From Desulfurococcales archaeon (GTDB lineage Archaea; Thermoproteota; Thermoprotei_A; Sulfolobales; Acidilobaceae): a stretch of DNA of 24,000 nucleotides. Shown here piece by piece: positions 7,356 through 24,000 of the stretch (position 1 is its first letter; the number at the start of each line of letters is the position of its first letter). The stretch lies in NCBI GenBank assembly GCA_015521115.1, contig WAOT01000056.1, positions 1 through 24,000 of the forward strand, given 5' to 3'. The notes under the pieces are model-generated. The model had not been told where the DNA came from, searched no databases, and saw nothing but the letters and a program-made list of their open reading frames with translations. The translations under genes and the position numbers were made by a program.

Positions 7356-7461
7356 CGGGTATCAAAGGGGGGCTCCCTCCCGCGCGGCCCGCTCACTGCC
7401 CAAGGGGCGGGCTCACACCTGCTATGCCAGGTCATTGCCCCAGGGTATACGGGTTTACGTG

Positions 7462-7480: not shown

Positions 7481-7552
7481 AGATGTATGTAAATACCTCC
7501 CCTAAAGCCCGTCCTAGGTATCCTGGGGAGCCTCAGTAAGGGGTGTGGGCTG

Positions 7553-8026: not shown

Positions 8027-8093
8027 GTATAAGTATAGAGTCGCCGCCTTAGACCTGGGAGTGCAACCCGTAGTGAGCGGCCAAGTTTGACGG

Positions 8094-8825: not shown

Positions 8826-8995
8826 GCCTTTAACGGGCGGCGTCGAGGTGAGACAGGTCTCCTCAAAGCCCCCCGGGAGGGGCTCAGGCCCGTGGACTCT
8901 TCACACGCCGCCCCCTTATATTGTGTCTGAACCCTTCGGCCCACTTAACACTTTATTGTGTGGCACTGGCGGATACCATTGATAAGGTGTTGGGT

Positions 8996-9451: not shown

Positions 9452-9455
9452 CCGG

Positions 9456-9968: not shown

Positions 9969-10081
9969 CTTGTAGAGAGCAGCTAATCGGATGCCCCCCG
10001 TTTTAAGCATATATCTATACCTGTACCGTCATAAATAGTCCACAAAACCCACACTACCTACAATGTGAGCATGCGAACCGG

Positions 10082-11272
10082 GTGAGTAACGTGCCAAAGA
10101 ATATTCTGATACTAGGAGGAGGCACTGGAGGAGTAGTAGCAGCACTAAGCCTTGCAGAGGCTAAAGAGAAGTTCGGCCTAGACTATGAGATAACACTAGT
10201 CAACAAGACTGAGTGGCACTACATGCCCCCACTCTGGATGGACGTAGCACTAGGGACAGCTAAGATCGAGGAGACCAGGGCGCCCATAAGAGGGTTAGAG
10301 AAGTATGGCGTTAAGGTTGTAGTCGGCGAAGCAGTAAATATAGACCCCGGGAACAGGGCCGTATCACTCGCCGACGGAACAACGCTAGGATACGACTACC
10401 TGTTCGTTGTCCTAGGGCTCAGAAACGGCTGGGAGGCAATTCCAGGCTACGCTGAGGAGGGCTACCACAACTATAGCCCGGAGGGTGCACTAGAGTTCAA
10501 CAATGCCCTAAAACAGTTTAAGGGAGGTAAAGTCGTCATAACAGTGCCTGAAGTTCCTTTCAGGTGTGGGATATACCCGATGGAGTTCGCGACAGTCCTA
10601 GCCTATAAGCTCTCCTCTAAAGGGATAAAGCCCGAGATCACACTCATGAGCCCCAGGATGCCAAATGGTGTAGATATAACGTATGCACTGGGCCCTGACA
10701 TTAAGAGGCTATGGGACAAGTACTTCAATATGTACGGTATTAAAGTGAGGACACACGATGGTATTGAGAAGATCGACGGTCAGAGGAAGGTCGTTGTGAC
10801 GAAGAACTACGAGGAGCCCTACGACCTCCTAATTAAGGTGCCCCCGCCAAGGTCTCCTAAGGTGCTAGAGGAGAACCCCGAGTTCCAGAAGGATCCGACA
10901 GGCAGGTTCATAGTTGCTAAGCCCCTAGACTTCAGGCATCCCAAGTATGACGACATATTCCTCACAGGAGAGCACAGCATGCCACCAACAGGACTAGGGA
11001 CGGCCGGCGTCTTCATACATGCAGCTTCCTACAGGGCGACCCAGATCCTGCTGAGCGACGAGTACGGTGTCGGAAGCCCAGGCCCAATACCTCCGGTAGC
11101 ATGTGTCGCCTATGTCGCGGACAAGGGCTTCCTAGGCGTGTGTGAGGTCACATTCGACGGGCAGACACACATGTGGAGCGGGCCGAGGTGCTATAACGTG
11201 GTGGAGAGCTACCTGATGAAGATGGTCAAGCACGCCTTCTACCAGGGGTGGCTTGACAGGCTCAGGCTCTAA
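10082..11272 (+). CDS. NAD(P)/FAD-dependent oxidoreductase, sulfide:quinone oxidoreductase / NDH-2-like
   Basis: There is an N-terminal dinucleotide fold NILILGGGTGGVVAA. A PFRCGIYPMEFA segment resembles the SQR Cys motif. A second Rossmann-like region follows, and the GEHS...GTAGVF region resembles the FAD-binding C-terminal motif. A DUF1641 partner lies downstream. Confidence 0.75.
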   Translation: MSNVPKNILILGGGTGGVVAALSLAEAKEKFGLDYEITLVNKTEWHYMPPLWMDVALGTAKIEETRAPIRGLEKYGVKVVVGEAVNIDPGNRAVSLADGTTLGYDYLFVVLGLRNGWEAIPGYAEEGYHNYSPEGALEFNNALKQFKGGKVVITVPEVPFRCGIYPMEFATVLAYKLSSKGIKPEITLMSPRMPNGVDITYALGPDIKRLWDKYFNMYGIKVRTHDGIEKIDGQRKVVVTKNYEEPYDLLIKVPPPRSPKVLEENPEFQKDPTGRFIVAKPLDFRHPKYDDIFLTGEHSMPPTGLGTAGVFIHAASYRATQILLSDEYGVGSPGPIPPVACVAYVADKGFLGVCEVTFDGQTHMWSGPRCYNVVESYLMKMVKHAFYQGWLDRLRL

Positions 11273-11287
11273 ATGTGGGGGTGATAT

Positions 11288-11728
11288 GTGATGGCGGAGA
11301 AGATAATTGCGGGAGACTTCGAGCTGGAAGCTCTAAAGGAGCTCCTCGAGGTCGCGGTAGAGCTCAAGAAGTCAGGCATACTAGGGATGCTAAAATCGTT
11401 CCTTAGCGAGGGCGAGGAAGCACTAGCGGGCCTACAGAGGGATCCAAGCCTACTAAGACTTGGAGTACTACTGGGAGCACTGTTCGAGGCGGCTAGGAGG
11501 CTCGAGGCGGAGAAGACGGTTCAGCTCAAGATGAACGTTGAGGACGCCAGCTACTGCCTCTTCAACACCCTAGCCGAAGTAAGCCCGGCCAAGGCCGAGC
11601 CTAAGGGCGGGATCTTCGGCCTGATGGGAGTTCTGAGGGATCCCGACGTCCAGAAGGGTCTTGGATACCTTATAGCCATGGCCAAGTCTCTAGGAGCGTG
11701 TATGAGGAGGATGGAGGGCAAAGCCTAA
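11288..11728 (+). CDS. DUF1641-family protein (usual partner of SQR/NDH-2-like flavoproteins)
   Basis: This 146-aa helical protein (LKELLEVAVELKKSGILGMLKSFL...) lies 15 nt downstream of the flavoprotein gene. The call rests on remembered family pattern and conserved gene pairing. Confidence 0.6.
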   Translation: MMAEKIIAGDFELEALKELLEVAVELKKSGILGMLKSFLSEGEEALAGLQRDPSLLRLGVLLGALFEAARRLEAEKTVQLKMNVEDASYCLFNTLAEVSPAKAEPKGGIFGLMGVLRDPDVQKGLGYLIAMAKSLGACMRRMEGKA

Positions 11729-11742
11729 CCCCTGAAAACCGC

Positions 11743-11747
11743 TTTTT
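11743..11747 (+). terminator. Oligo-T tract (TTTTT) downstream of the DUF1641 gene
   Basis: CGCTTTTTCC lies 15 nt after the TAA stop at 11726-11728. Archaeal termination commonly uses T-runs. Confidence 0.4.
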
Positions 11748-11786
11748 CCCCGGGGAAGGTCTCCTTCAGTACTGCATTATCTAATC

Positions 11787-13412
11787 TTGTCTTGCAAGTG
11801 TAAAATACTCATGAGACTAACCACCCTTACGGGTGCCATAGAGTTGAGCGGCTGTCCTGGTCTCTATGAGGCCTCTCCAGAAGACGCTGTCAGCGTTGAG
11901 CACGTCCGGGCCTCGGAGCTTAACGGTGTATACCTCGGCGTACCACTACTCCTCCTAATGGAGAGTGCCGGGAGGAGTGTGGCTGACGCCATAGAGTGTA
12001 AGCTAGGTAGTGTTAAGGGTAAGAGCGTCCACATACTGGCAGGGAAGGGCGGTAACGCTGGAGACGGCTTCGTCGCCGGCCGCCACTTAGCCCTTAGGGG
12101 TGCTAAGGTGGTAGTCCACCTATCCTCCCGTGCTCATGAGGTCACTCACCCGGATGCGAGGCTTAACCTAGAAGCCCTCATAAGAGCGGGGGGCGTGCGG
12201 GTGCTAGAGCCTGGTAAGAGAGGGTGGCTAGACCTTTCAACAGCAGACGTCATAGTTGACGCCATGCTGGGTATCGGGGTGAGGGGTGCACTCCGTGGCA
12301 GGATAAGGGATATGGCTGACGCGATGAACGAGTCGGGAGGCCTAAGGGTAGCCATCGACACCCCAACAGGCCTAAACCCCGATACCGGTGAGGCCGTGGA
12401 GGGGGCTGTGAGGGCTGACCTAACTGTGACAATGGGGTGGGCTAAGAGGGGCCTGTTCATGGGGAAAGCCCCACTCTATACCGGTGAGGTTCTAGTAGCG
12501 GAGATAGGCCTCCCGCGGGAGGCGGAGATATACGCGGGCCCTGGTGACGTTATAGCAAGGCTCCCAGACCGGCCTAGGGATGCGCACAAGGGTGTTGGGG
12601 GGCGAGTCTTAATAGTGGCCGGTAGCAAATACTATGTCGGTGCTGCCATCCTCTCCGCCGGGGCAGCTACAAGGAGTGGGGTCGATCTGGTATACCTCTC
12701 ATCCGTTAAAGGCACAGCTGTAGAGGCGGCCTCACGGTTCAGCAGTGTCATACCCGTACCCTACAAGGGTGATATACTGTCAGCCGATGACATTGAGAGG
12801 GTTGTTGAGACTGCTGCCAAGGCACACTCCATTCTCATAGGCCCAGGACTTGGTGCTGAGGAGGAGACCCTCGAAGCCGTAGCACGGTTATACAGGGAAT
12901 TGAGGGAGAGATGGCCAGACAAACCGATTGTCATGGACGCGGACGCTCTTAAAGCGATAGACAGGATAGGTGAGCTAGACGAGCTAACCATTATAACACC
13001 CCACAGGGGGGAGGCCAGGAGGCTCCATAGGAAGAAATCTTCCGATGATCTCAAGGCTATCGCAGAGGATATAGCCAAGACTATAGGCGCAACAGTCCTC
13101 CTGAAAGCCCCACACGACATCATATGCAGTCCAAGGGGGCCGTGTAGGGTCAACAGGAGCGGCGTCCCCGCAATGAGCGTCGGGGGCACAGGAGACGTAT
13201 TAAGCGGCATCGTAGCAGGCTTCCTTGCTAGGAGGGCCAGTAAAGGCTTAGACCCAGACCCCCTCAACACGGCAGCTGCAGCAGCATTCCTAACAGGGCT
13301 CGCCGGAGAGATGGCATACGAGCTCTATGGGGAAGCAATGACAGCCAGTGACGTCCTAGAGGTTATACCAAAGGCCCTGACAAAGTGTAGAGAACTCGTC
13401 ACCCACCACTAA
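11787..13412 (+). CDS. nnr: Bifunctional NAD(P)H-hydrate repair enzyme Nnr (YjeF_N epimerase + YjeF_C ADP-dependent dehydratase)
   Basis: N-domain motifs: LMESAGRSVA, ILAGKGGNAGDGFVAGRHL, VDAMLGIGVRG. C-domain motifs: KGVGGRVLIVAGSKYYVGAAILSAGAATRSG, IGPGLG, DADAL, ITPHRGE, GGTGDVLSGIVAGFLA. The start may be the ATG at 11811 instead of the TTG at 11787. Confidence 0.9.
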   Translation: MSCKCKILMRLTTLTGAIELSGCPGLYEASPEDAVSVEHVRASELNGVYLGVPLLLLMESAGRSVADAIECKLGSVKGKSVHILAGKGGNAGDGFVAGRHLALRGAKVVVHLSSRAHEVTHPDARLNLEALIRAGGVRVLEPGKRGWLDLSTADVIVDAMLGIGVRGALRGRIRDMADAMNESGGLRVAIDTPTGLNPDTGEAVEGAVRADLTVTMGWAKRGLFMGKAPLYTGEVLVAEIGLPREAEIYAGPGDVIARLPDRPRDAHKGVGGRVLIVAGSKYYVGAAILSAGAATRSGVDLVYLSSVKGTAVEAASRFSSVIPVPYKGDILSADDIERVVETAAKAHSILIGPGLGAEEETLEAVARLYRELRERWPDKPIVMDADALKAIDRIGELDELTIITPHRGEARRLHRKKSSDDLKAIAEDIAKTIGATVLLKAPHDIICSPRGPCRVNRSGVPAMSVGGTGDVLSGIVAGFLARRASKGLDPDPLNTAAAAAFLTGLAGEMAYELYGEAMTASDVLEVIPKALTKCRELVTHH

Positions 13413-13834
13413 CTCGACCTGCCCCTCCCTCCTCCCATTAGGGACAATACCCTCTCACGTGAGAGCGGAGGAGTATACCATATCAGCCCCTTCCATCCCA
13501 GGAGGCGCTCAAGCTCCCGGAACACCAAGTAATACGAGTTTCCACGCCATACAAGCAGTCCCCTGTCCTTAAGCACTCTAAGCGGTGTGGGGCTCTCTAC
13601 CGGGGGCACCGCCTCCCTATAATCGCCCCCACACTCGACTGCCACATGAGCTGGCATAGCGATCACACGGGCACCTTCCACTATCCCACTAATGTCAGTA
13701 CACTCAATTAGGATTAGGACGTCAGGCCTTTCACCGCCACCGCAACCCCTTCTGACCTCGAATCCAAGGTAGAGGAGGAAGTGCTCAAGACATGCACTCC
13801 ACTCGCCGCCGCCCACTATGCATGCAAGAGGCAC
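13409..13834 (-). CDS. Hypothetical 141-aa protein with five Cys, no family recognised
   Basis: The ORF starts at GTG 13834. A TATA-like ATTATATG on the minus strand (plus-strand coordinates about 13869-13876) lies roughly 35-40 nt upstream. There is no competing ORF on the other strand. The 3' end overlaps the nnr stop by 4 nt (convergent). Cys contexts are ACIVGGG, SACLEH, RGCGGG, IECTD and VECGGD. Confidence 0.45.
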   Translation of the reverse strand: MPLACIVGGGEWSACLEHFLLYLGFEVRRGCGGGERPDVLILIECTDISGIVEGARVIAMPAHVAVECGGDYREAVPPVESPTPLRVLKDRGLLVWRGNSYYLVFRELERLLGWKGLIWYTPPLSRERVLSLMGGGRGRSS

Positions 13835-14053
13835 ACCCGGTCACCATAAGAGGTGAGCTCGCTACCCATATAATATGAGAAGGGTTCCCGAAACCTTGGA
13901 GTTACCCAGTCTTTAAAGGGGGGCGTAAAACTCTTACCCCGCTTTTACACCTGCTCGAATCTGAACATTGAGAGGCTTGTAGTTGAGTGAGTACAGGTAA
14001 GCTCGTGGTGGCAAGCGGATAGCAACCTTCAACTCTGTCATAAAGATTATTGC

Positions 14054-14061
14054 ATTATATA
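14054..14061 (+). promoter_or_regulatory. TATA box for the Mrr-like nuclease gene (leaderless geometry)
   Basis: ATTATATA is centred about 26 nt upstream of the ATG at 14084. This is the classic spacing for a leaderless crenarchaeal transcript. Confidence 0.5.
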
Positions 14062-14083
14062 GAGGCTATAAGAGCTGAATGTC

Positions 14084-15307
14084 ATGTTAGAGATACGTGA
14101 TACAAGGCTGCGGTTTAGGTCTTGGGGGTCTGTATTGTCTAGGAGGCGTAATAGGGACAGGAGATCGAAGAAGTCCTCCAAGGGGAGGAGGTGGAGGGAG
14201 AAGGGTTATCTCTTCGAGGAGGTCGTCGCAGAGTACTTCTCCATGATCGGCTACACGGTTGTGAGGAACGTTAGACTCAGGGGCTACTCCGGGGCTCTCC
14301 ACGAGATCGATATACTCCTAGAAAAGGAGGGTGTCAAGGGAGTTGTAGAGGTCAAAGACTATTCTAGCCCTGTCTCAAAGGAGTGGGTCGCTAAAATACA
14401 TAGTGTCGCAAAGGATCTCGGATTCCAGGAGGTATACCTTGTCGCATCAAACGGCTTCACCGACGGCGCGGAAAAGGTAGCAAAGATCCTGGGAGTGAAA
14501 CTCCTGACATTAGACGACATATCACGGAAAATAGACATCCTCAAAGGGGTAGAGAGCATACCCCACTTCTACGCCAAGCCCCAGCTGACGAGGGAGAAGG
14601 CGAGGAAAGAGGCTGAGAAGAAGGCGGAGAAGATCCTCTTCATCTCAAGAGAGGAGGTCACAAGGGAGGAGTTCATCTACTACCCCTTCTATGCCGTCAA
14701 AGGCGTATACTCTTGGGAGGAAGAGGCCGGAATACCACCGTTCCGGAAGAGAATCCTGAGGAGCAAGGAGGTCGCCCTACTCTTAATGGACGCCAGAACC
14801 GGGAGCATCCCGATAATAGGGAAGAATAGATGGGAGCTCGTTAGCATTGGGAACCTGCGGGATAGTGAGAAGAGGATCCTAGCCTTACTCGTTGAAAACG
14901 ACATGACACGCGAGGAGTTCCTAGAGAAGACCCAGATGAGGCCCCAAGCTATGGGCAGGATCCTGTCTAGCCTGAAGAGGAAGGGCCTAATAGATGTAGA
15001 TGAGGACGGCACATACTATACTATCCTGCCGCCTATGGGGGATCTGGAGAAGGCCTACTCGGATCTCGAGCTCATGGACAGGCCTGAAAGGGGGTACCGC
15101 CTAGTAGAGCCCTCTATCACCTCAACTGTGGCCAGGCTAACCGCCTCATCCCTCTACGGTCTCTCAGACCCTGAGCCGATCCTAGTCTATTTACCGATCT
15201 ATAGGGCGAGGCTCACGAGGAAAGATGGTTCATATCGTATGGTGAACATTGGGGTCTGGAGTCGGAAGGCGGTTGAGATAGAAATTGGCGGGAAAACAGG
15301 GCTTTAG
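14084..15307 (+). CDS. Mrr-type (PD-(D/E)xK) restriction-endonuclease-domain protein fused to a wHTH and two unassigned beta-rich modules
   Basis: Residues about 41-146 fit the Mrr_cat layout: GYLFEEVVAEYFSMIGYTV...ALHEIDILLE...GVVEVKDYSSPVSKEWV...VYLVASNGFTDGAEKVAKILGVKLLTLDDI, with candidate D76, E89 and K91. Residues about 262-312 form a MarR-like wHTH (KRILALLVENDMTREEFLEKTQMRPQAMGRILSSLKRKGLIDVDEDGTYY). The N-terminal tail is very basic (RRRNRDRRSKKSSKGRRWREKG). Confidence 0.75.
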   Translation: MLEIRDTRLRFRSWGSVLSRRRNRDRRSKKSSKGRRWREKGYLFEEVVAEYFSMIGYTVVRNVRLRGYSGALHEIDILLEKEGVKGVVEVKDYSSPVSKEWVAKIHSVAKDLGFQEVYLVASNGFTDGAEKVAKILGVKLLTLDDISRKIDILKGVESIPHFYAKPQLTREKARKEAEKKAEKILFISREEVTREEFIYYPFYAVKGVYSWEEEAGIPPFRKRILRSKEVALLLMDARTGSIPIIGKNRWELVSIGNLRDSEKRILALLVENDMTREEFLEKTQMRPQAMGRILSSLKRKGLIDVDEDGTYYTILPPMGDLEKAYSDLELMDRPERGYRLVEPSITSTVARLTASSLYGLSDPEPILVYLPIYRARLTRKDGSYRMVNIGVWSRKAVEIEIGGKTGL

Positions 15308-15329
15308 GGGGTTTCTACTGGTTGGCTTA

Positions 15330-15788
15330 TTACTCTTTAGGCGTGAAGTAGAGGATGTCTGTTATGCTGCCCGTCCTCTCCTCTGCAGGTTTGAAGACAG
15401 GCTCGACCGGCATGCCCGGGTAGATCTTGTCTGGTTCTGCCTTAACCCTGTGTATTAGGCCTCCTGTGGCCCCATCAGGTCTTATGAGGGCTAGGATCTC
15501 GGGCTCGGGTAGGCGGTTGCCCTCTAGATCCTCGTATATTACAGTGTATAGGGTGACCCTCCACTTCCCTGTTATCTCTACTAACTCGCCCTCAACGTGG
15601 TCTGGGCAGAAGGTGAGTGGGGGTACAATGATCTTGTCGCCACACTTCATGCCAAGTATCTTGCCCTCTTTGAGGGCCTTGGCTAGCTCTAGCCCGTGAA
15701 GGCCGGGTGTGTATACGTATTCCTCGACCTCCTGGCTCCCGGGGTAGAGTATTACGTCCTCGACCCTCCTAGGCTTCCACCAGGACAT
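15330..15788 (-). CDS. DUF35 OB-fold protein with degenerate zinc ribbon
   Basis: It aligns with the neighbouring DUF35 paralog (KALKEGKILGMKCGDKIIVPPLTFCPDH versus KGLKEGKILGVKCPVCGRVYVPPRAFCEYCH). Two of the four Zn-ribbon Cys are replaced (CGDK...CPDH). The C-terminal OB-like region reads LIRPDGATGGLIHRV. Confidence 0.8.
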   Translation of the reverse strand: MSWWKPRRVEDVILYPGSQEVEEYVYTPGLHGLELAKALKEGKILGMKCGDKIIVPPLTFCPDHVEGELVEITGKWRVTLYTVIYEDLEGNRLPEPEILALIRPDGATGGLIHRVKAEPDKIYPGMPVEPVFKPAEERTGSITDILYFTPKE

Positions 15789-15794
15789 GCCTCT

Positions 15795-16328
15795 TCACCC
15801 CTCAACCGGCTCGAAGCACTCAATATCGTTGATGTCTCCCTTCCTCTCCTCCGGCGGCTTCCACCGTGGCTTCACCCTCATCCCGATTGCTTTACCGCTC
15901 ATCACGTCCTCTGGCTTAATACCGCAGAGCCTGTGGAAGAGGCCTGCGAACTCGTAGCTCCCCTCAGTGTAGCCCGGTGCGTCGAGCTTTATGACCCCAA
16001 CGATCTCAGGCTCCTCCATCCTCTCTCTGAAGGTTGAGATGTAGCTCACCACAGCAGTATGGATCTCACCAGTACCCGGCAGCTCAACCCACTCATTCAT
16101 AGGGACATGGCAGTACTCGCAAAAGGCTCTTGGGGGCACGTATACGCGTCCGCATACCGGGCACTTCACTCCCAGGATCTTACCCTCCTTGAGCCCCTTC
16201 AGGAACTTTGACTGTGCTATTCCAGCGCTAAACCTGTACTTTGCCTGGGGCTTGTAGCGGACTAGTCCCGGGAGGGAGTACATCTCGGCCCTCTTAAGGT
16301 ACCTCCCCGGAAGCTTATCCACGGTCAT
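15795..16328 (-). CDS. DUF35 (Zn-ribbon + OB-fold) protein, thiolase-complex scaffold family
   Basis: There is an intact C4 ribbon, CPVCGRVYVPPRAFCEYCH, followed by an OB-fold-like region (GEIHTAVVSYIS...IVGVIKLD). Confidence 0.85.
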   Translation of the reverse strand: MTVDKLPGRYLKRAEMYSLPGLVRYKPQAKYRFSAGIAQSKFLKGLKEGKILGVKCPVCGRVYVPPRAFCEYCHVPMNEWVELPGTGEIHTAVVSYISTFRERMEEPEIVGVIKLDAPGYTEGSYEFAGLFHRLCGIKPEDVMSGKAIGMRVKPRWKPPEERKGDINDIECFEPVEG

Positions 16329-16340
16329 CTCCTACACCCC

Positions 16341-17519
16341 CTAGTTCGAGAGGACTATAACAGTGCCCGCCTGCATCAGGTCTCCCCACGCTTGGGCTAC
16401 TCCCTTGTGGACGGGCTTCTTCACCTGCCTCCTGCCTGCCTCGTAACGGAGCTGCCAGAAGATCTCGGCAGTCTTCATTAGACCTGCCGCTGCGATAGGG
16501 TTCCCCACTCCTAGCAGTCCACCGCTCGGGCTCGTCGGGAGGTCTCCGTCCCTATAGAATACGCCCTCCTTCAGCAGCTTCCAGGCCTCGCACGGCCTTG
16601 CTAGCATTAGGCCCTCGATGTGGTGTAGCTCCTTATAGTCGAATGGGTCGTAGGGCTCTGCGACATCGATCTCCTTCCACGGCCTCTCGATACCTGCCAT
16701 CTTGTAGGCCATCCTAGCAGCGTAGTTAACATACCTGGGGAAGGCTAGCTCCCTGTTATACCAGTGGGTGTTGTCTAGTGTGAAGCCTATGCCCTCGACC
16801 CATACGGGGCTGTCAGTTATCCTCCTAGCCATGTTCTCCCTCGCGAGGACGAGGGCTGCGGCTCCATCGCTGACAGGGCTGATGTCAAGCCTGTTGACCG
16901 GCCATACTAGGAGCTCGCTGTTCAGGACGTCCTCTACCGTTATCTTGGCAGCGGCCTGTGCTGCCGGGTGGTCTAGGGCGTTCGCCTTGTTCTTCACGCT
17001 CACGAGGGCAATGTCCTCCTTCTTAGCGCCGCACTTATGCATGTACCTGCGCATCTCCATTGCGAAGATCCATATCAGGTTGGGGCCGAGGGGCCTTTCC
17101 AGGATCGGATCCCAGATGTAGGCGAAGACTCCCTGAGGGTGTGGGTGTGCCGGGCTCATCTTCTCCTCCGCAACAGCTAGAACAGTGTTGCACATTCCAC
17201 TAGCTACATGCCACCATGCGGCGACGGGAACCATTACACCGGTGCCCCCTCCAACGTAGACCCTGACTGTAGGCTTCATCCACCCACCGCTCCCGTCTGC
17301 AAGGTACTCGCCATTGAAGTGGACTCCATCGAAGGCGTCGGGGGCTGTCCCGATGACAACACAGTCTATGTCCTTCAGGGTCAGCCCAGCACTGTCTAGG
17401 GCCATCTTAGCCGCTTCCCAGGCCAGCTCCCTAGGAGTCTCTAGGAGCCTCCTCCGGAAAAGGGTCAGCCCTGCCCCGACAATGGCGACCTTATCCTTCA
17501 CATGAATGTTCGTCCTCAC
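16341..17519 (-). CDS. Thiolase-fold (SCP-x/archaeal thiolase-like) protein lacking the canonical catalytic residues
   Basis: Thiolase-like landmarks: KVAIVGAGLT, VLAVAEEKMS, VSVKNKANALDHP, ISPVSDGAAALVL, TSPSGGLLGVGNPIAAAG. Where the nucleophile motif (xxCxSG) is expected, the sequence reads VYVGGGTG. Confidence 0.85.
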   Translation of the reverse strand: MRTNIHVKDKVAIVGAGLTLFRRRLLETPRELAWEAAKMALDSAGLTLKDIDCVVIGTAPDAFDGVHFNGEYLADGSGGWMKPTVRVYVGGGTGVMVPVAAWWHVASGMCNTVLAVAEEKMSPAHPHPQGVFAYIWDPILERPLGPNLIWIFAMEMRRYMHKCGAKKEDIALVSVKNKANALDHPAAQAAAKITVEDVLNSELLVWPVNRLDISPVSDGAAALVLARENMARRITDSPVWVEGIGFTLDNTHWYNRELAFPRYVNYAARMAYKMAGIERPWKEIDVAEPYDPFDYKELHHIEGLMLARPCEAWKLLKEGVFYRDGDLPTSPSGGLLGVGNPIAAAGLMKTAEIFWQLRYEAGRRQVKKPVHKGVAQAWGDLMQAGTVIVLSN

Positions 17520-17535
17520 CTGACCATCACCCCCC

Positions 17536-18696
17536 TCAAATTGTGGACAAGATTACCGCCGCCGCAGTGTAGGTCGGGGGCCCCCTCCAGCTCGCCACCA
17601 TCACCCTCTCGGGCTCGTTCGTTGGGTACTCTGTGGCCCCCATGAGCTGGAGGTAGGCCTCTAAGAGGCGGGCTCCCCCGGTCGCCTCCAGCATCACACC
17701 AATACTCTGGCTCCCCCCGCTAGGGTTTACTGGTAGAGCGCTGTTGTAGTCTAGGTCTCCGTTCTCCAGCATCTTCACAGCTTCCCCCTCCTTAGCGAAG
17801 CCCATCTCCTCTAGGAATAATGGCTCGAGGAAGGCGAAGCCGTCCTCTATCTCGAGGGAGTCGATATCCCTTGGTGAGAGGCCTGCCATGTTGAACGCCA
17901 TGTCAGCGGCAGCCTTGGCAGCAGGCATCCTTCCGAATGTGTGTAGGAACACGCTACCCGTCCCCACCTCGGTAGCGTATCCTACCCCCTCGACCCACAC
18001 TGGGGTGTCTGTCACTCTCCTAGCTACATCCTCTGACGCGAGCACGAACACGACAGCACCGTCAGCGTACGAAGCTGTCTCAAGCCTCCTAATAGGCCAC
18101 ATACTGTACCCGCTCTCCACAACATCCTCAAGCGTTATGCGGGCAGCGTAGCTGGCCCTCGGGTTTAGGAGGCCGTTCCTCCTGTTCTTCACGCTCACAA
18201 GCCCTATCAGATCCCTATCAACACCCGTCCTCATGAGGTAGGCGTGCATGTCTAGGGCAGCGAGGAATAGGGGGTTACCCGGCTTTAGGGGCCTAATGTA
18301 GAGGGGGTCGAGGGCTAGCTCGTATATCCCTTGGAGCGTCTCAATATCGCTCTGCTTCGAGTGGGACTCGACGGCAACCACGTCGAAGGCCCCGCTACGT
18401 ATCATCATGACGGCCTGGGCAACGCCCTGTAGGAGGTCTCCTGCGACGGTGAAGGTAGGCCTTAACACACCGCCCAATGGTTCTGGCGCGAACTCGTCAG
18501 CTATCGCTATACCCTCCCAATAGTCCTCCTGACAGCTAACAAACCCATCGATATCGCTTCTCGGGTCAACACCGGCGTCCTGATAGGCTCTTGTTGCGGC
18601 CTCAAACATCATCTCCCTAAAGGACAGCTCGGGCACGCTTGGCTTGAAACCGTAGTAGCCCGCGCCTATGATGGCTACTCTCCTCAAGGATCCCAT
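17536..18696 (-). CDS. Thiolase-fold protein (second paralog), also lacking the canonical catalytic residues
   Basis: Landmarks: RVAIIGAGYYG, VVAVESHSKQS, VSVKNRRNGLLNP, ASYADGAVVFVL, VNPSGGSQSIGVMLEATG. The expected nucleophile position reads FTVAGDLLQG. A GGGGAGG Shine-Dalgarno-like sequence sits just upstream of the ATG at 18696. Confidence 0.85.
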   Translation of the reverse strand: MGSLRRVAIIGAGYYGFKPSVPELSFREMMFEAATRAYQDAGVDPRSDIDGFVSCQEDYWEGIAIADEFAPEPLGGVLRPTFTVAGDLLQGVAQAVMMIRSGAFDVVAVESHSKQSDIETLQGIYELALDPLYIRPLKPGNPLFLAALDMHAYLMRTGVDRDLIGLVSVKNRRNGLLNPRASYAARITLEDVVESGYSMWPIRRLETASYADGAVVFVLASEDVARRVTDTPVWVEGVGYATEVGTGSVFLHTFGRMPAAKAAADMAFNMAGLSPRDIDSLEIEDGFAFLEPLFLEEMGFAKEGEAVKMLENGDLDYNSALPVNPSGGSQSIGVMLEATGGARLLEAYLQLMGATEYPTNEPERVMVASWRGPPTYTAAAVILSTI

Positions 18697-18812
18697 GCCT
18701 CCCCGCTAGGGCACCGCAGCCCAGCCTGCAGGCCGGGCCGCGCTGCCGTGGGGTATGGGTGGGAGGAGTGTTGGGATAACTGGTTTGTCCGTGGAAAAAC
18801 ATATACGGAATT

Positions 18813-20069
18813 TTAGAGTCGGCGGGCAGCGAGCACGATGACTATAGCGGCAACTATCACGCCTACGACGATACCGGCGTATAGTAGCATCTCCCTCTTC
18901 CCGGAGCTTAGCGTCTTAGCTACGTCCTCGGGTAGGCTTACCACAGGCTTGGTCGGGCTCTTCCCTTTCTCCACCTGGACGGTAGCGTTTAGCCCGGAGC
19001 TCTTGAGCTGGCTGCTGAGCCAGGTTTTCAGCTCGTCAACCGTCTTGCTCGGGTCACTCTTGTATACTACCCTAGGGTACACGATGACTAGTGTATTGTT
19101 CTCCGGGTAGGCCTTAATGGTGGCGTATGTCGGGAGCTTTAGCTTGTAGTCCTCCTCCGTTAGCTCCATTATGAAGGAGGGTGTGGCCTCGGTGGGCATC
19201 GAGGATATTGTTGGAATTAGGGTTTGGAGGACGTCTGGCGACTTTGTAGCGTTCGCAACGTCGCCCTTAACCACGAACTTGAACGTAACGTTAATGAAGT
19301 ATACCTTGCCATAGGCCAACGTGCCATTTATAAAGCCGCTGTCTATCCACAGGTTCTTGCTCGCCATACTCTTAAAGTCAATGTTTAGACCCAGGTTACC
19401 GATGTTAGACTCGAAGTCGCTGAGGGGGTCGTAGGTAGCCCTGCTCTCATACTTTAAGTGTATCTTGACCTCGTTGTCTCCCACCTTCTCAACGTCTTTC
19501 TCAATAATCTTGAACATGGAGGTCGAGTTCAGCACGTTCACGTACTGGTAGAGTGTATCAATTATGCCCGTATCCCCTTTAACAACCTTGAAATCGTAAT
19601 CAATCGTTGCTGTGACGTTTCCAGTCTGCTCATTGTACTCATAGACACCTTTAGACTTGGCCTCGTAAACCGTTGTCTCGTTGCTGAAGTAGCTCTTCCC
19701 GTCATACTCGAGCCTGTTCTTCTCCCCGCTCAACTTCGTGTCGAAGGACGCCTTAGTCGTTGAGGGTAAGGCCCAAGGGGACTTCCAGGAAGCGTTATAG
19801 CGGACGTATACGGAGGCAGAATCGTTGGAGAGTGCAACGGCAAGTTCGAAAGCCTTCACGTTAAGGTCTAGAGACTCTGAGAGGTTCTCCGAGACCAGCT
19901 TAACGAATGGTTGGGCAGAGTTATCATCATAGTATATGATTTTGGCGACCGCCACGTTAAAATCCTGGGCCCCCAAGGCAGATATCATTGGCGCGGGGAG
20001 GAGGAGTAGGAGGATCATTAAAGTGGACACGACCTTGTTAACCCTCCTCGCAGCGGCCACAGTGTTCAC
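18813..20069 (-). CDS. Membrane-anchored extracellular glycoprotein (signal peptide + C-terminal TM anchor), function unknown
   Basis: The ORF starts at GTG. The N-terminal signal is VVSTLMILLLLLPAPMISALGA. The C-terminal anchor LLYAGIVVGVIVAAIVIVLAARRL carries a basic tail. There are many N-x-S/T sequons (NLS, NDS, NAS, NET, NVT, NST, NGT, NAT, NNT), as in crenarchaeal surface proteins. An A/T-rich box lies about 25 nt upstream of the start on the minus strand. Confidence 0.7.
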   Translation of the reverse strand: MNTVAAARRVNKVVSTLMILLLLLPAPMISALGAQDFNVAVAKIIYYDDNSAQPFVKLVSENLSESLDLNVKAFELAVALSNDSASVYVRYNASWKSPWALPSTTKASFDTKLSGEKNRLEYDGKSYFSNETTVYEAKSKGVYEYNEQTGNVTATIDYDFKVVKGDTGIIDTLYQYVNVLNSTSMFKIIEKDVEKVGDNEVKIHLKYESRATYDPLSDFESNIGNLGLNIDFKSMASKNLWIDSGFINGTLAYGKVYFINVTFKFVVKGDVANATKSPDVLQTLIPTISSMPTEATPSFIMELTEEDYKLKLPTYATIKAYPENNTLVIVYPRVVYKSDPSKTVDELKTWLSSQLKSSGLNATVQVEKGKSPTKPVVSLPEDVAKTLSSGKREMLLYAGIVVGVIVAAIVIVLAARRL

Positions 20070-20126
20070 CTCAATTCAAGCTACTCTATTGTTTTTATCC
20101 TAAACCTATAAGTCTTAAGCTCTTTA

Positions 20127-20492
20127 ATGCACCCCGTAACACACCAGCTTTTCAGGTGCAGTGGCATGGCGGGCTACGGGGTTAACCCCATCGAGACGTG
20201 GTTCCATGAGAGGAGGCAGAAGAACATCCACATGAGCTACAACGAGATACTAGAGGCTGTGAGGCTCGCCGTGATTGCTGAGCTGGACACAATAAACTAC
20301 TACGAGCAGGTGGCGAACGCGACCAGGGACGAACAGGTGAAGAGGGTCTTCATGGACGTCATAAAGGAGAAGACGAAGCTCATCGGAGTATTCCTGGCAC
20401 TGCTCTCCAGGCTCGACCCCCAGTTCAGCAGACTCTATAGGGAGGGTATCAAGACCGTTGAGGAGAGGCTCGCCATCAAGGTTGAACTCTAG
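20127..20492 (+). CDS. Small ferritin-like / encapsulated-ferritin-like (rubrerythrin-fold) protein, metal site apparently degenerate
   Basis: The core LEAVRLAVIAELDTINYYEQVANATRDEQVKRVFMDVIKEKTKLIGVFLALLSRLDPQF is collinear with my recollection of EncFtn/Flp-type proteins (..EE.A...Y.Q.A....D......L..I..EE..H...F..LL...DP.F). The start is uncertain: ATG at 20127, 20166 or 20232. Confidence 0.55.
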   Translation: MHPVTHQLFRCSGMAGYGVNPIETWFHERRQKNIHMSYNEILEAVRLAVIAELDTINYYEQVANATRDEQVKRVFMDVIKEKTKLIGVFLALLSRLDPQFSRLYREGIKTVEERLAIKVEL

Positions 20493-20615
20493 TTGCCAAA
20501 TAAAAACTATGCTCACAAAATGTGAGCACAGCTTATAACCCTCAGTCAACAATAGAGTAATGCAGAAAGAAGGATATAAACAATGATAAGATATAATATA
20601 ACGTAATAGTAAAAA

Positions 20616-20625
20616 CTATAAATAA
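20616..20625 (+). promoter_or_regulatory. TATA box (CTATAAATAA) for the 20628 gene
   Basis: The strong TATA-like box is centred about 27 nt upstream of an in-frame TTG at 20649. That geometry fits a leaderless start better than the GTG at 20628, which is only about 5 nt from the box. Confidence 0.45.
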
Positions 20626-20627
20626 GG

Positions 20628-21230
20628 GTGAGGAACGGGGTGCATATATTGCATAGTAAAATTATTTCCAGGAGAGCAGTACTTACAATATTCCTAATCA
20701 TTATCTACACAATAGTAGCCGCCAAGGTCTATATAGGTGGAGTAAACTACCTATCAACATACTACAATATCATCGACAGACCAGAACCAGATGTACCACT
20801 CAAAAACATTGTTGCCGCGGTATCTAGCGCTGAAAACATCGGCCATATCAGGGTACATGGAAATATCGAAATGCTCCGGATGGACTCGGCCACCGTACCT
20901 AAGGTAGGGGACACGGTTGTAATAATCCAGAATGGCCGGTGGAGCACCAATAAGACAGGTGTTATCCTATCCCCAGAAACGGTTCAGTGTATGATAAGAA
21001 ACTCAAGAAACGCTGAAGTTGAGGGGGTAGCCCTATATTGGTATGTGCCCGGTCAAGGCTGGGTTAAGGTGGTACTTGCAGAAGACATCACGCTGCACGG
21101 AGCTTCTAACATCAATAAGTGCCTGGGGGCTCTAGCTCACGGTTCAGATGCTAGGAACCTCTTAGGATACAACGGTTCCCAGCATGAAGGCGGTATTGAA
21201 ATAAGTCTACACCTAGTCGGCGGGAGGTGA
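20628..21230 (+). CDS. Hypothetical signal-anchored protein in an AT-rich islet
   Basis: The N-terminal TM segment is AVLTIFLIIIYTIVAAKVYIGG, followed by a soluble domain of about 160 aa. I recognised no family. Codon and base composition are visibly more A/T-rich than in neighbouring genes. The likely true start is the TTG at 20649. Confidence 0.5.
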   Translation: MRNGVHILHSKIISRRAVLTIFLIIIYTIVAAKVYIGGVNYLSTYYNIIDRPEPDVPLKNIVAAVSSAENIGHIRVHGNIEMLRMDSATVPKVGDTVVIIQNGRWSTNKTGVILSPETVQCMIRNSRNAEVEGVALYWYVPGQGWVKVVLAEDITLHGASNINKCLGALAHGSDARNLLGYNGSQHEGGIEISLHLVGGR

Positions 21231-21322
21231 TTAAGTAGAAAACAAACACTTGGACACGCACAAGTCCGACGCCTGACAGCTATAACCCCGCAACCTACCA
21301 CAACAATACTGAGGGACGGGGC

Positions 21323-21883
21323 TTGACACTCTCAACGACCGCAACCGTAACGATAGTAGCGGCTGACCTCGTAAGCGCAGTACTACTTCTATACATAGCC
21401 TTGAGGCTGCTGAGAGCCCTGTCCCTCATAGGTTCCGTCATAGACCCGGCCCTAGGCATGACCCTACTGGCGTTATCCCAGCTGGCAGCCGCCCTCACAG
21501 TGGTGGTAGAGGAGCAAACACTAACATACACCCTATACACTTTAACAGGCCCCTTACTTGCTGGGGGGTTCTTCCTCATCGCTACACCTCAAAAGCCTGC
21601 ACAACCACGAGCCCGTGAGCATGCCCTCCTTATCCCACCCGCACTACTAGTCGCGGCCATCGGGGATCTAGTCGGCCTTCTAGCGGGTGTGTTGAGTGCA
21701 CTCAGGTATAGGGGCGTCGCGAGGGTAGTCTCCTTATTGGTAGTGGTGGGTTTCGCACTAAGAATAGCCGGTCTAAGCCTCTTACCATCGCCGCCGGGAG
21801 TGCTATCACTAGTCCTGGGGGAGGTGGTGAGGAGCTCCGCACTGGTTGTGCTCTCATTAGCTTACGCGCCTGTGAGGGGGTGA
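21323..21883 (+). CDS. Polytopic membrane protein (5-6 predicted TM helices), function unknown
   Basis: The ORF starts at TTG. It is rich in L/A/V/G hydrophobic stretches (VTIVAADLVSAVLLLYIAL, LLALSQLAAALTVVV, GPLLAGGFFLIA, LLVAAIGDLVGLLAGVL, VVSLLVVVGFAL, VLSLVLGEVV). It ends 9 nt before the wHTH gene. Confidence 0.5.
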   Translation: MTLSTTATVTIVAADLVSAVLLLYIALRLLRALSLIGSVIDPALGMTLLALSQLAAALTVVVEEQTLTYTLYTLTGPLLAGGFFLIATPQKPAQPRAREHALLIPPALLVAAIGDLVGLLAGVLSALRYRGVARVVSLLVVVGFALRIAGLSLLPSPPGVLSLVLGEVVRSSALVVLSLAYAPVRG

Positions 21884-21892
21884 TCCCCGAGG

Positions 21893-22177
21893 TTGCCTAG
21901 GAAGAGGAGTAGACTGTTCATAATAATGGAGATCCTCGAGGCGTTAAACGATGCACCCATGACCCCAACAAGGTTAGCTACTGTTGTGAACCTGCCATAC
22001 GACAGGATGAGGCGAATCATAAAAGATCTCGAGGAGAGGGGTCTCATTGAGAGGCTGCGCCGCGAGAACTCTCCGAGCGTCACTTACCTCGCCATCACGG
22101 ATAGGGGTGTAAAGCTTCTGAGGGAATTGAGGAAGCTTAAGAAGCTCTTAAACGATTTCGACCTAGACATTATCTAG
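21893..22177 (+). CDS. Small winged-helix transcriptional regulator (COG3432-like)
   Basis: This 94-aa protein reads KRSRLFIIMEILEALNDAPMTPTRLATVVNLPYDRMRRIIKDLEERGLIERL...YLAITDRGVKLLRELRKL. That matches the archaeal stand-alone wHTH pattern. The start is TTG. Confidence 0.75.
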   Translation: MPRKRSRLFIIMEILEALNDAPMTPTRLATVVNLPYDRMRRIIKDLEERGLIERLRRENSPSVTYLAITDRGVKLLRELRKLKKLLNDFDLDII

Positions 22178-22412
22178 GCCATCGGCGGGAAAACACGATT
22201 GCCAAGGCAAGTATAAAAAGTAGAAACAGGAGGAGGATCACCAGCAGCCGAATGACAAGCGGTAGGAGGGCGAATACTAGGGCGAATATGAAGCCTGAGA
22301 ATATTTTCTCGTCTGTTGGCCCCCTACGTATTAGGTAGCCGAATATGAAGCCAATGATTAAGAGTATTACCATAAGATTCATTACTGATATCCCCTCACA
22401 GTGAGGGGTCAT
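22170..22412 (-). CDS. Small hydrophobic membrane protein (80 aa), hypothetical
   Basis: The ATG is at 22412. There are two or three TM-like segments (LMVILLIIGFIFGYLI, FIFALVFALLPLVIRLLVILLLFLLFILALAIVF). The 3' end overlaps the wHTH gene convergently by 8 nt. No homology was recognised, so it could be spurious. Confidence 0.4.
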   Translation of the reverse strand: MTPHCEGISVMNLMVILLIIGFIFGYLIRRGPTDEKIFSGFIFALVFALLPLVIRLLVILLLFLLFILALAIVFSRRWPR

Positions 22413-22515
22413 GGCCTCAAGATATAAACCCTTCGCACAACATAGTAGTATATTTCAGAGGCCGCCCCCAACGTATACGGCGGCCTTATTCCCTCAAACT
22501 TGCGGGGTGCGAGTG

Positions 22516-24000
22516 ATGTCATTGAAGAAGGCCCCCCGGAGAAGGGCTAGGAGGGGGCAGAGCGAGGTCATCGGCGGCCTAATAGTGCTAACACTCCTAT
22601 TCGCCTTCGCAGTCCCCATGCTCATAAACACCTATAACACTACAGTCCAGATGGGGACAACAGTCCAGCAGAGCCTCCAACAGGAGAAGACAGCCTACAA
22701 CGAGAAGATAGAGATACACCCCCTGGATCCTAATAATGAGGCCTTCATCAGGGCAGGGTGGATCCCAGGGGTATTCATAAACAATACCGGGACAGTGACA
22801 GTCACACTCGAGAAGCTCATACTCCTAAACAAGCTAAACAACAGCATCTTCAGAGTATACGACCTTAGATATGCGAGGGACAACCTGCCGGACATAGACG
22901 TCATGCTAATGGATGTTGACATCGTAGGAGGAGCGGTGCAACAGCCACCGCCGCCGGGCAACCCCATAACCCTCAAACCGGGAGAAAACCTACTAGTAGT
23001 GTTCAACGAGTCCATACTCCCGTTCGCATCCCAGCTAGTAGTCCTTGTAGAGTCTGCTAGCGGAGTTATCCACCCAATAGTCGGGGGCGGAGCAGAGCAG
23101 CCACTATACCCCGGCAGACCCGGCGCAGGAGGCGGAGGAGGTGCGGGCCCAGGAGCATGGAGAGGTATCTTCGCGCCCCAGAGCGGGTTCAAGCTAGTGG
23201 GGGCGTACCAGCTGGACAAGGCCGGATACGCCCACGCATGGACACCGCCACTCCACGTCTACCCGGAGGTCAGGAACTGGTGGTGGTGGGAGCTCGGTGC
23301 TTTCAGCTATCAGACCAGCTTCATCTATAATGACCCCGAGTACCCAGGGCTCTACTACCTCTACATAATACCCGATGAGACTGTGAGGATCGTCGCCCAA
23401 GGCTCTTACGGAGGCTGCGGCAACTTCTACTACACAGTATACTCTGGCTATATTATCCAGGTCAGGGGTTACGTGGGAACATATGATACGGGAGGAGATG
23501 GCACCTACTTCAACGGCTGGGCTTACGAGGTTAGGATATACAACCCATATGGCGGCCTTGTGGCCAGGTTCTCGTGCTCTAACACTCGAGACCTTGGGGC
23601 TAAAGGCGTGACGTGGACTGACTTCGACGGTAACGGTGTGAATGAGGTGACCATGTATAGCTACCTGAACGGCCCCAACGTCGGCACATCCACTGATGTA
23701 GACGCTGACAGTGACGGGGACGTGTACAACGACTCCGTGGTATGGACTTACATGGTGAGCAGGGACATAAGCGGGGTGGACTTCATCAAGATCACCGCCA
23801 AAGTGAACTACTACTGGACTACCGTGTTCTCCAGCAGCACTGGCTGCCCAGACTGGGAGTATAGGCACCTTAAGACGTTCGCAGTGGTCGTATGGCAGTA
23901 TAACAACGCAACCGGCACCTGGGAGGTCTACCACTTCCTCGACTACACCTACACCTCTGACAAGCCAAAGCAGTACCAGCCGGTTATAACGTTCCCCGTA
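22516..24000 (+). CDS. Large type IV pilin-like (class III signal peptide) secreted/surface protein, 3'-truncated by window end; NOT in the supplied ORF track
   Basis: I translated 22516-24000 codon by codon and found 495 sense codons with no stop, open to the window edge. The N-terminus is MSLKKAPRRRARRG|QSEVIGGLIVLTLLFAFAVPML: basic residues, then Gly, then a hydrophobic helix, which is an archaeal prepilin-peptidase-type signal. A beta-rich domain follows, then a Gly-rich linker PGRPGAGGGGGAGPGAW, then a Tyr/Trp-rich domain with WWWW (23278-23289) and Asp-rich loops DFDGNGVNE (23620-23646) and DVDADSDGDVYND (23695-23733). Confidence 0.8.
   Translation, partial: MSLKKAPRRRARRGQSEVIGGLIVLTLLFAFAVPMLINTYNTTVQMGTTVQQSLQQEKTAYNEKIEIHPLDPNNEAFIRAGWIPGVFINNTGTVTVTLEKLILLNKLNNSIFRVYDLRYARDNLPDIDVMLMDVDIVGGAVQQPPPPGNPITLKPGENLLVVFNESILPFASQLVVLVESASGVIHPIVGGGAEQPLYPGRPGAGGGGGAGPGAWRGIFAPQSGFKLVGAYQLDKAGYAHAWTPPLHVYPEVRNWWWWELGAFSYQTSFIYNDPEYPGLYYLYIIPDETVRIVAQGSYGGCGNFYYTVYSGYIIQVRGYVGTYDTGGDGTYFNGWAYEVRIYNPYGGLVARFSCSNTRDLGAKGVTWTDFDGNGVNEVTMYSYLNGPNVGTSTDVDADSDGDVYNDSVVWTYMVSRDISGVDFIKITAKVNYYWTTVFSSSTGCPDWEYRHLKTFAVVVWQYNNATGTWEVYHFLDYTYTSDKPKQYQPVITFPV

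Follow-up and report, generated by a model that had tools for sequence, protein, structure and literature searches.

Our analysis of a 24,000-nucleotide stretch of DNA from a hydrothermal-vent Desulfurococcales archaeon (assembly GCA_015521115.1, contig WAOT01000056.1, positions 1 to 24,000; the whole stretch is hereafter called the window) showed that its right end carries, on the plus strand, a real and conserved gene under purifying selection. The window holds the 5' 61% of this 809-codon gene. The N-terminus of the encoded protein has all the sequence features expected of an archaeal class III (prepilin) signal, and is followed by a predicted pilin-like head, a glycine-rich hinge and about 590 residues of additional domains, the last of which lies outside the window. 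In our judgement the balance tips slightly towards a modular minor or tip pilin that serves as an adhesin and whose assembly machinery is encoded elsewhere, a function that we infer from conservation, predicted structure and the gene neighbourhoods of relatives.

A plus-strand gene and its antisense shadows

The open reading frame (ORF) track of the window displayed only two minus-strand ORFs of 174 and 246 codons in this region (Table 1). The sequence-only reading, i.e. an earlier description of this DNA made from its letters without database searches, had proposed that these ORFs, which do exist as listed, are antisense shadows masking a hidden plus-strand gene. Codon composition, substitutions, homologs and the lack of antisense conservation all agreed with this proposal. 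From ATG 22516 to position 24000, the plus frame runs over 495 codons with zero stops, the remaining five frames containing 12 to 33 stops each, and the chance of such a stop-free run, computed from local base composition, was about 1.5e-9. Its GC contents at codon positions 1, 2 and 3 (0.53/0.42/0.69) resembled those of identified genes of the window, such as CDC48 and the thiolases, which are rich in G and C at third codon positions (GC3-rich). The minus-strand ORFs were rejected as genes because their codon statistics argue against them.

A clear coding signature was also observed at the level of substitutions. In the comparison with the 90%-identical gene of metagenome contig L005 (homolog loci and proteins are designated here by L and P numbers), 193 of the 246 nucleotide differences fell at the third position of plus-frame codons, and the changed codons comprised 161 synonymous and 47 non-synonymous ones. 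The plus-frame product had 42 database homologs (best E = 0, 90% identity), nearly all of them 775-861 amino acids (aa) long and two of them partial. Among the homolog genes, the longest antisense open stretch varied from 57 to 345 codons, i.e. no antisense ORF was conserved. The opposite arrangement, with one or both minus-strand ORFs as real genes and the plus frame open by chance, can call upon the length of these ORFs, but it runs against the third-position bias of substitutions, the codon-position GC, the 42 homologs, the absence of antisense conservation and the improbability of the open frame itself, and we grant it next to no probability. Both minus-strand ORFs are shadows cast by the GC3-rich gene on the plus strand. 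This carries a lesson for annotation: an 809-codon gene running off the window escaped the ORF track, and two long antisense shadow ORFs took its place.

The sequence-only reading had further suggested extending the sequence past position 24000 up to the stop codon. This was done on locus L015, a 239,648-bp metagenome scaffold (ENA ERZ23495249 REYS20-1_SAMN12239311 scaffold_9) reached via the winged-helix protein encoded at 21893..22177 of the window. Bases 108-12108 of this scaffold were 100% identical to window positions 12000-24000, and the gene continued there over 314 codons beyond the window to a stop at window-equivalent 24943-24945. As for the start codon, the closest in-frame stop upstream of ATG 22516 lies at 22402, and the candidate in-frame starts are ATG 22411, GTG 22507, GTG 22513, ATG 22516 and TTG 22522. 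The alignment of homolog N-termini designated ATG 22516, and the gene caller picked the same ATG on the identical L015 scaffold. ATG 22411 was rejected, since homolog N-termini align at 22516 and the upstream codon overlaps a divergent 80-aa ORF.

Architecture of the encoded protein

The protein begins with MSLKKAPRRRARRG/QSEVIGGLIVLTLLFAFAVPMLI, where the slash marks the predicted cleavage site. The leader, MSLKKAPRRRARRG, contains seven Lys or Arg among its 14 residues, and QSEVIGGLIVLTLLFAFAVPMLINTY, directly after it, comprises the predicted cleavage site and the hydrophobic stretch; the junction itself displays the motif RRG/QSEVIGG. Conservation at this junction was counted over the 38 homologs having a complete N-terminus. 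K/R at position -2, G/A at -1, Q at +1 and GG at +6 and +7 occurred in all 38 of them, and E at +3 in 37. The consensus, R[RK][GA]/Q[SA]E[VI][IV]GG with about 24 hydrophobic residues behind it, was thus near-invariant despite an overall identity of merely 31-55% among these proteins. Positions -2, -1 and +1 are the key ones in substrates of archaeal prepilin peptidases, a basic residue at -2 being an archaeal hallmark (PMC3387779). The features that characterize such signals according to the same reference, i.e. a short basic leader, K/R at -2, G/A at -1 and a hydrophobic stretch of about 20 residues, were all found here. The class III (prepilin-type) signal recognized by the sequence-only reading was therefore borne out by the motif conserved across the 38 homologs.

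A structural model was obtained with AlphaFold2 (AF2) for P0001, the full-length 90% homolog, using a 41-sequence family alignment (mean predicted local distance difference test score, pLDDT, 85.8). Its predicted N-terminal helix covers 47 residues (aa 16-62) and leads into a beta-sandwich with strands between aa 65 and 180, i.e. the extended helix plus beta-sandwich of archaeal pilins; Pro34 was invariant in the family alignment. A low-confidence linker follows at about aa 190-215, with pLDDT below 50 at 190-192 and 201-213. This linker corresponds to a Gly-rich stretch (aa 190-214), Gly reaching 43.5% over aa 196-218. A complete pilin moiety (head at aa 15-189), a linker and independent modules, as in modular pilins, were accordingly recognizable in the prediction, which contains two confident domains. 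The layout proposed from the letters alone, with a pilin-like head, a Gly hinge and a large aromatic-rich domain, was recovered in this model.

Searched with Foldseek against the Protein Data Bank (PDB), the head matched 8fk7_A, the flagellar-like archaeal type IV pilus of Pyrobaculum calidifontis, with a probability of 1.00 and a TM(target) of 0.57. At the sequence level, 8fk7 was also the sole match of the family profile among PDB sequences (E = 0.12), and the head alone gave only chance-level matches to PDB sequences. The NCBIfam model UpsB aligned with aa 15-110 (E = 1.9e-5, 24.7 bits for a cut-off of 70), and weak matches to it were recorded in 6 of the 41 members. Pfam searches with the window protein and five full-length homologs returned nothing at E <= 1. 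Proteins of 330-1025 aa that end in other C-terminal parts, DUF2341 in two cases, carried the head (profile positions ~8-196) as well, which thus behaves as a portable module.

Beyond the hinge, the cargo starts with an all-beta domain in which F, W and Y make up 20.6% of aa 219-495. Its Foldseek matches in the PDB comprised CBM16 (probability 1.00), the EphA7 ligand-binding domain and TNF, and those in the BFVD viral library were phage host-specificity, tail-fibre and carbohydrate-binding-module (CBM)-containing proteins. The model thus suggests a jelly-roll or CBM-like domain, a resemblance of fold class and not homology. The top full-length Foldseek matches (lambda gpJ, GH31 and EngBF) were discarded: with a TM of about 0.1 over 550-690 columns, they are generic beta-sandwich-array matches and not homologs. 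The run of four Trp residues singled out by the sequence-only reading is indeed present, but it proved to be lineage-specific and no family feature, as it was intact in the window protein and P0001 only; shorter Trp clusters occurred in some relatives (WWW in P0002).

The two DxDxDG-like Asp loops that the same reading had pointed out are both present and conserved, but its comparison with FG-GAP, thrombospondin type 3 and dockerin repeats found no support, none of these models matching. In the first loop, DFDGNGVNE, residues D369, D371, N373 and E377 were invariant and G374 nearly invariant in 41 sequences, and this pattern makes it a candidate for Ca2+ binding. The second follows the consensus NxDADxDG...D, with D398 and D406 invariant and D396 nearly so. 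An FG-GAP or VCBS propeller was rejected, given the absence of any Pfam match at E <= 1, of repeats and of a predicted beta-propeller; the likeness is one of motif only.

The last part of the protein, encoded outside the window at window-equivalent ~24130-24942, was predicted by AF2 as an alpha/beta domain (aa 546-806). Modelled separately (P0050), this domain reached a pLDDT of 94.8. Close to its end stands a conserved NPVHIDWDxxGDG motif, possibly another metal-binding loop. Finally, six N-glycosylation sequons were counted in the 495 residues encoded by the window versus 0-2 in the window's cytoplasmic proteins, a signature of extracellular proteins.

Relatives, partner gene and genomic neighbourhood

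The family is narrow. Only 66 relatives emerged when 1.84 billion representative proteins were searched exhaustively with a profile, and the family consists of proteins of about 775-930 aa. Named members are Aeropyrum pernix APE_0898.1, a Stetteria hydrogenophila protein and, more distantly, Pyrolobus fumarii Pyrfu_0583; further named sources are metagenome-assembled genomes (MAGs) labelled Acidilobaceae, Thermodiscus, Aeropyrum, 'Ca. Calypsonella' or Desulfurococcales. When genome contigs were scanned with a single protein nothing was found, and the family alignment detected 23 loci; the scan of metagenome contigs yielded 2 loci only. Family members have been annotated as 'hypothetical protein' in databases since the Aeropyrum genome (e.g. 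APE_0898.1), and literature searches for APE_0898 and APE_0898.1 found no mention. Its members are confined to hyperthermophilic Desulfurococcales, and their genes usually lie apart from those of pilus machinery.

About 30 of the fetched homolog loci (L001, L003, L006, L008-L010, L013, L014 and L017-L039 except L031) displayed a gene of 215-281 aa, typically ~270 aa, immediately upstream of the large gene. This partner is usually divergent, a co-directional arrangement being found in L013 and Pyrolobus. All nine partners that were read have a class III-type start, with a hydrophobic helix after R[RK]GQ (RSQ in Pyrolobus). Of six partners scanned against NCBIfam, two passed the cut-off of TIGR02537, the archaellin/pilin N-terminal model, and two were weakly like UpsA. 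A DxDxDGxx[DE] loop was present in most of the nine aligned partners. By sequence, the partner alone gave only chance-level matches to the PDB.

The loci with usable upstream sequence in which this partner was missing were those of the window's own lineage (L015 and L016) and L031. The latter comes from the same MAG as L036 (WAQN01, Desulfurococcales S146_67), so that this genome encodes the large protein twice, as paralogs, with the partner adjacent in L036 and missing in L031. By analogy, the genome of the window may carry a second copy with its partner elsewhere. The two thiolases, an EncFtn-like gene and a 418-aa gene are common to the window and the syntenic locus L006. At the place occupied in L006 by two prefoldin-domain genes and the pilin-like partner, the window has a region dipping to 46% GC (20100-22450), composed of a 200-aa ORF, a 186-aa multi-pass membrane protein, an HTH_45 winged-helix regulator and an 80-aa membrane protein. 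This patch of small genes looks like a replacement or an insertion.

Only one relative, L013/L039 (37% identical; MAG GCA_027083135.1), was found inside a recognisable type IV filament locus (12431-22331 of L013). The large protein and its partner are encoded there with two small UpsA-like pilins (146 and 139 aa) and a FlaI/BasE-like ATPase, which is followed downstream by the presumed platform-protein gene. A PMT-type glycosyltransferase and a 1509-aa beta-propeller surface protein are also encoded there. Encoding beside a type IV filament ATPase and a platform gene, or demonstrable assembly by them, is one mark of archaeal pilins; among the relatives, such an ATPase, followed by the presumed platform gene, was observed within 10 kb only at L013/L039, and neither gene was observed in the window.

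The sequence-only reading had expected the assembly ATPase, the platform protein and further pilins just past the window. This expectation failed, because no pilus locus was found in the 7 kb downstream or in the 22 kb upstream. On L015, the stop codon is followed by a 350-nt gap, then by a gene for a 266-aa KaiC-like ATPase and, beyond it on the opposite (minus) strand, by an ABC-ATPase operon that also encodes four small proteins, membrane-bound or secreted. The 22 kb upstream in the window hold housekeeping genes, a putative IS607-type element (see below) and the low-GC patch of small genes. No further class III-signal gene occurred within 7 kb downstream on L015, the window-wide motif scan for class III signals matched the gene at 22516 only, and no prepilin peptidase gene was present in the 24-kb window or in the 8 kb beyond. 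Assembly may depend on machinery at a distant locus.

The region upstream of the start codon displays three elements, which are listed in Table 1 together with the other features. The TATA-box-like ATATAAA is a possible archaeal promoter, and GATATAAACCC was also retained upstream of the 90% homolog gene in L005. Between this box and the Shine-Dalgarno-like sequence lies a hairpin that may act as a 5'-leader structure. The 66 nt at 22450-22515 had a folding energy of -24.2 kcal/mol (z = -2.2), and L005 forms a stem on the same GAGGCC/GGCCUC core. L005 likewise has GAGGTG at the position matching GGGGTG in the window.

Table 1. Features of the right end of the window, in window coordinates
Feature	Position	Strand	Basis or remark
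TATA-box-like ATATAAA	22422..22428	+	~90 nt 5' of the start codon; read from sequence
9-bp GC-rich hairpin in presumed 5' leader	22458..22487	+	between TATA-like box and Shine-Dalgarno-like GGGGTG
Shine-Dalgarno-like GGGGTG	22504..22509	+	6 nt 5' of ATG 22516; read from sequence
Coding sequence, codons 1-495 of 809, pilin-like modular surface protein	22516..24000	+	stop at window-equivalent 24943-24945
Class III signal leader, aa 1-14 (MSLKKAPRRRARRG), predicted cleavage G14/Q15	22516..22557	+	homolog conservation
N-terminal alpha-helix (predicted), aa 15-62	22558..22701	+	AF2 helix 16-62; first ~24 residues hydrophobic
Antisense shadow ORF, 174 aa, not a gene	22695..23219	-	GC1/2/3 = 0.41/0.63/0.62; substitutions track plus frame; antisense ORFs unconserved
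Beta-sandwich pilin-like head (predicted), aa 63-189	22702..23082	+	AF2 strands 65-180
Conserved NNTGTV strand motif	22780-22797	+	within head
Gly/Pro-rich flexible hinge (predicted), aa 190-218	23083..23169	+	Gly content, low pLDDT
Aromatic-rich all-beta domain (predicted), aa 219-495, on to ~aa 540 past the window	23170..24000	+	AF2 strands 219-536, pLDDT mostly >90
Antisense shadow ORF, 246 aa, not a gene	23194..23934	-	GC1/2/3 = 0.73/0.44/0.49; substitutions track plus frame; antisense ORFs unconserved
WWWW run, aa 255-258, lineage-specific	23278..23289	+	alignment column variable or gapped in most relatives
DFDGNGVNE, DxDxNGxxE loop, aa 369-377, candidate Ca2+ site	23620..23646	+	between strands 365-368 and 377-381 (model)
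DVDADSDGDVYND, second Asp-rich loop, aa 394-406	23695..23733	+	conserved

Other genes of the window were recorded in passing. Positions 3035-4967 carry a serine resolvase (HTH_17 and Resolvase domains), a 129-aa ORF and a protein with a Cas12f1-like TNB domain (TnpB-like), an ensemble that looks like an IS607-type element. On the minus strand, two thiolase-like genes and two genes of ChsH2-type zinc-ribbon/OB-fold (DUF35-like) proteins stand in a row at 15330-18696, a set typical of archaeal acetoacetyl-CoA thiolase / HMG-CoA synthase complexes. The 418-aa protein mentioned above is encoded at 18813-20069, also on the minus strand, and its position beside the thiolase genes is conserved in L006 and L015. 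It displays an N-terminal Sec-type signal, a C-terminal membrane anchor, 11 N-glycosylation sequons and no Pfam match, and is probably a surface glycoprotein.

Proposed role, known systems and alternatives

The protein shares with the pilins UpsA and UpsB and with the P. calidifontis pilin 8fk7 a short basic leader, K/R at -2, G/A at -1 and a hydrophobic helix followed by a beta-sandwich. It also displays weak UpsB similarity over aa 15-110, and its relatives pair with a second pilin-like protein weakly like UpsA. Yet, these pilins are small (~130-145 aa), whereas the present protein reaches 809 aa with its ~590 aa of extra domains. It also differs from them by its low UpsB score (24.7 versus 70 bits), by the lack of a TIGR02537 or Pilin_N match and by the lack of an adjacent ATPase or platform gene. 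We retained the label 'pilin-like' because the class III signal and the predicted fold are those of a pilin, but the thresholds of the curated models were missed and the linkage to assembly genes was lacking.

Modular minor pilins have been described in Streptococcus sanguinis, where PilB carries a von Willebrand A module and PilC, complexed with PilA, a lectin module (PMC8179133, PMC9934059). The same working model applies here, i.e. a pilin moiety bearing a bulky module of a binding-type fold and acting with a likely pilin partner. In contrast to PilB and PilC, the archaeal protein belongs to another domain of life, has an archaeal signal (K/R at -2, no Glu5) and displayed no detected sequence relationship with them. 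The PilB and PilC genes lie in a pil locus and their incorporation into filaments was shown; the gene of the window stands outside such a locus, and the incorporation of its product is a prediction.

Likeness was also observed with the sugar-binding proteins of the Saccharolobus solfataricus bindosome and with SPIII substrate-binding proteins, which place a large cargo on a class III signal and helix and are encoded away from the assembly ATPase (PMC2910488; bioRxiv 10.64898/2026.04.22.720090). These proteins have a substrate-binding-protein (SBP) fold and are encoded beside ABC-transporter genes, unlike the present protein, which lacks an SBP domain and has a complete pilin-like head before its cargo. 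Membership of the bindosome proteins was therefore rejected, neither an SBP family match nor a co-transcribed permease operon having been found. It has been proposed that class III-signal proteins 'functionalise' archaeal type IV filament machineries (bioRxiv 10.64898/2026.04.22.720090), a proposal with which the tip-pilin reading is also in agreement.

The 9-residue DxDxNGxxE loop, located between two strands, is reminiscent of the calcium loops (DxDxDGxxD) present in FG-GAP blades and in PilY1, a resemblance that we treat as a lead only. No FG-GAP or VCBS model matched and no propeller was predicted, in contrast to PilY1 and FG-GAP proteins, and PilY1 itself is no pilin. The protein was filed neither under UpsB, Pilin_N or FG-GAP nor with the bindosome proteins; it is pilin-like and likely works like a modular minor pilin.

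In the mechanism that we favour, the precursor would enter the membrane via the Sec system and lose its basic leader of 14 residues to a PibD/FlaK-type prepilin peptidase cutting after Gly14. A type IV filament machinery whose genes lie elsewhere in the genome would then accept the hydrophobic helix, and the protein, as a low-abundance minor or tip pilin, would present a glycan- or surface-binding module, possibly in a Ca2+-dependent manner, at the end of a pilus made of small pilins. In most relatives it would act together with the adjacent ~270-aa pilin-like partner, which is not adjacent here. A minor or tip position is preferred because a fibre would hardly accommodate ~590 residues of cargo on each of its subunits and because small pilins accompany the pair at L013, where a full locus was seen.

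Several observations weigh against this reading. Cleavage, localisation and incorporation into a filament are predictions drawn from sequence and model, and the structure is that predicted for P0001, a 90% homolog, instead of the window protein itself. Curated pilin models were not satisfied, Pfam (including Pilin_N, PF07790) and TIGR02537 giving no match and UpsB staying below its cut-off. Neither a T2SSE-type ATPase nor a platform gene was found in the 22 kb upstream and the 7 kb downstream, and a pilus ATPase lay within 10 kb in only one of about 25 relatives with usable flanks. The partner was absent from the window (tblastn with six partners) and from L015 including the 8 kb beyond (nine partners). 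As for the cargo, carbohydrate binding is suggested by fold class only, with identities of 8-14% and no aligned residues given by Foldseek, and the C-terminal domain had no confident PDB neighbour (best Foldseek E = 0.14, probability <= 0.33), which provides no functional clue.

The unlinked position of the gene, at about 24 of 25 loci, would suit equally well a class III-signal surface protein that never enters a long pilus, being either anchored at the membrane by its helix after cleavage, as has been suggested for the bindosome proteins (PMC2910488), or part of a short assembly of pseudopilus or bindosome type beneath the S-layer, with a receptor or an enzyme as cargo. Archaeal class III signals are indeed found on sugar-binding proteins, proteases and redox proteins (PMC2910488; bioRxiv 10.64898/2026.04.22.720090), and the ~590-aa cargo far exceeds any solved archaeal pilin. 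Such a protein would not, however, be expected to have a full pilin-like globular head beyond its signal peptide and helix or to be paired with a second pilin-like protein, and neither a substrate-binding-protein domain nor a transporter operon accompanies the gene; moreover, one relative resides inside a pilus locus with small pilins. We regard this possibility as rather unlikely, though far from negligible.

More doubtful still is that the N-terminus would be an ordinary uncleaved signal-anchor of a type II membrane protein with a superficial resemblance to pilins. The failure of all curated pilin models speaks for it, as does the fact that a basic stretch and a hydrophobic helix look broadly alike in any such protein. 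A plain anchor would not be expected to keep the specific R[RK][GA]Q[SA]E..GG motif nearly invariant at the identities reported above, nor would it explain the match of helix plus sandwich to a solved archaeal pilin or the partner proteins that pass TIGR02537; we consider it quite improbable. The pilin-like head and helix could also be those of a major subunit that builds a thick 'bottle-brush' fibre of a new kind, with the helix in the core and the 590-aa cargo outside on its Gly hinge, whose flexibility could let the bulky cargo splay outward; the conservation of the gene in single copy across the family points in the same direction. No type IV filament is known whose major subunit is this large, however, and tandem pilin paralogs were lacking. 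The UpsA-like pilins of 139 and 146 aa at L013 are more natural fibre builders, and a family of 66 relatives among 1.84 billion representatives is narrow for such a role, which appears very improbable to us.

Returning to the minor or tip pilin, a more specific version of it can be put forward, tentatively and in the knowledge that it is probably not correct in all of its parts. According to it, the ~800-aa protein and its ~270-aa partner might form a Desulfurococcales-specific two-pilin tip complex, in which a Ca2+-stabilised jelly-roll and an alpha/beta fold unseen in the PDB would recognise glycans, minerals or host surfaces at ~90-100 C, the pilus machinery being encoded elsewhere.

Cargo on class III signals and modular pilins were both already known, and the family extends this theme. 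What is new is an unusually large archaeal pilin-like protein, its conserved enlarged partner, a candidate Ca2+ loop and a C-terminal fold without PDB neighbour. Solved or curated archaeal type IV pilins are small, UpsA, UpsB and the 8fk7 subunit having ~130-145 aa. With ~590 residues of binding-type cargo on a pilin-like head, usually encoded beside a second enlarged pilin-like protein, the family represents a concrete candidate for an archaeal pilus adhesin in vent Acidilobaceae, Aeropyrum, Stetteria, Thermodiscus and Pyrolobus. This candidate is testable in named species, as both Aeropyrum pernix K1 (APE_0898.1) and Stetteria hydrogenophila carry a member. The two-pilin tip complex, if true, would be the first archaeal counterpart of the bacterial modular-pilin adhesins.

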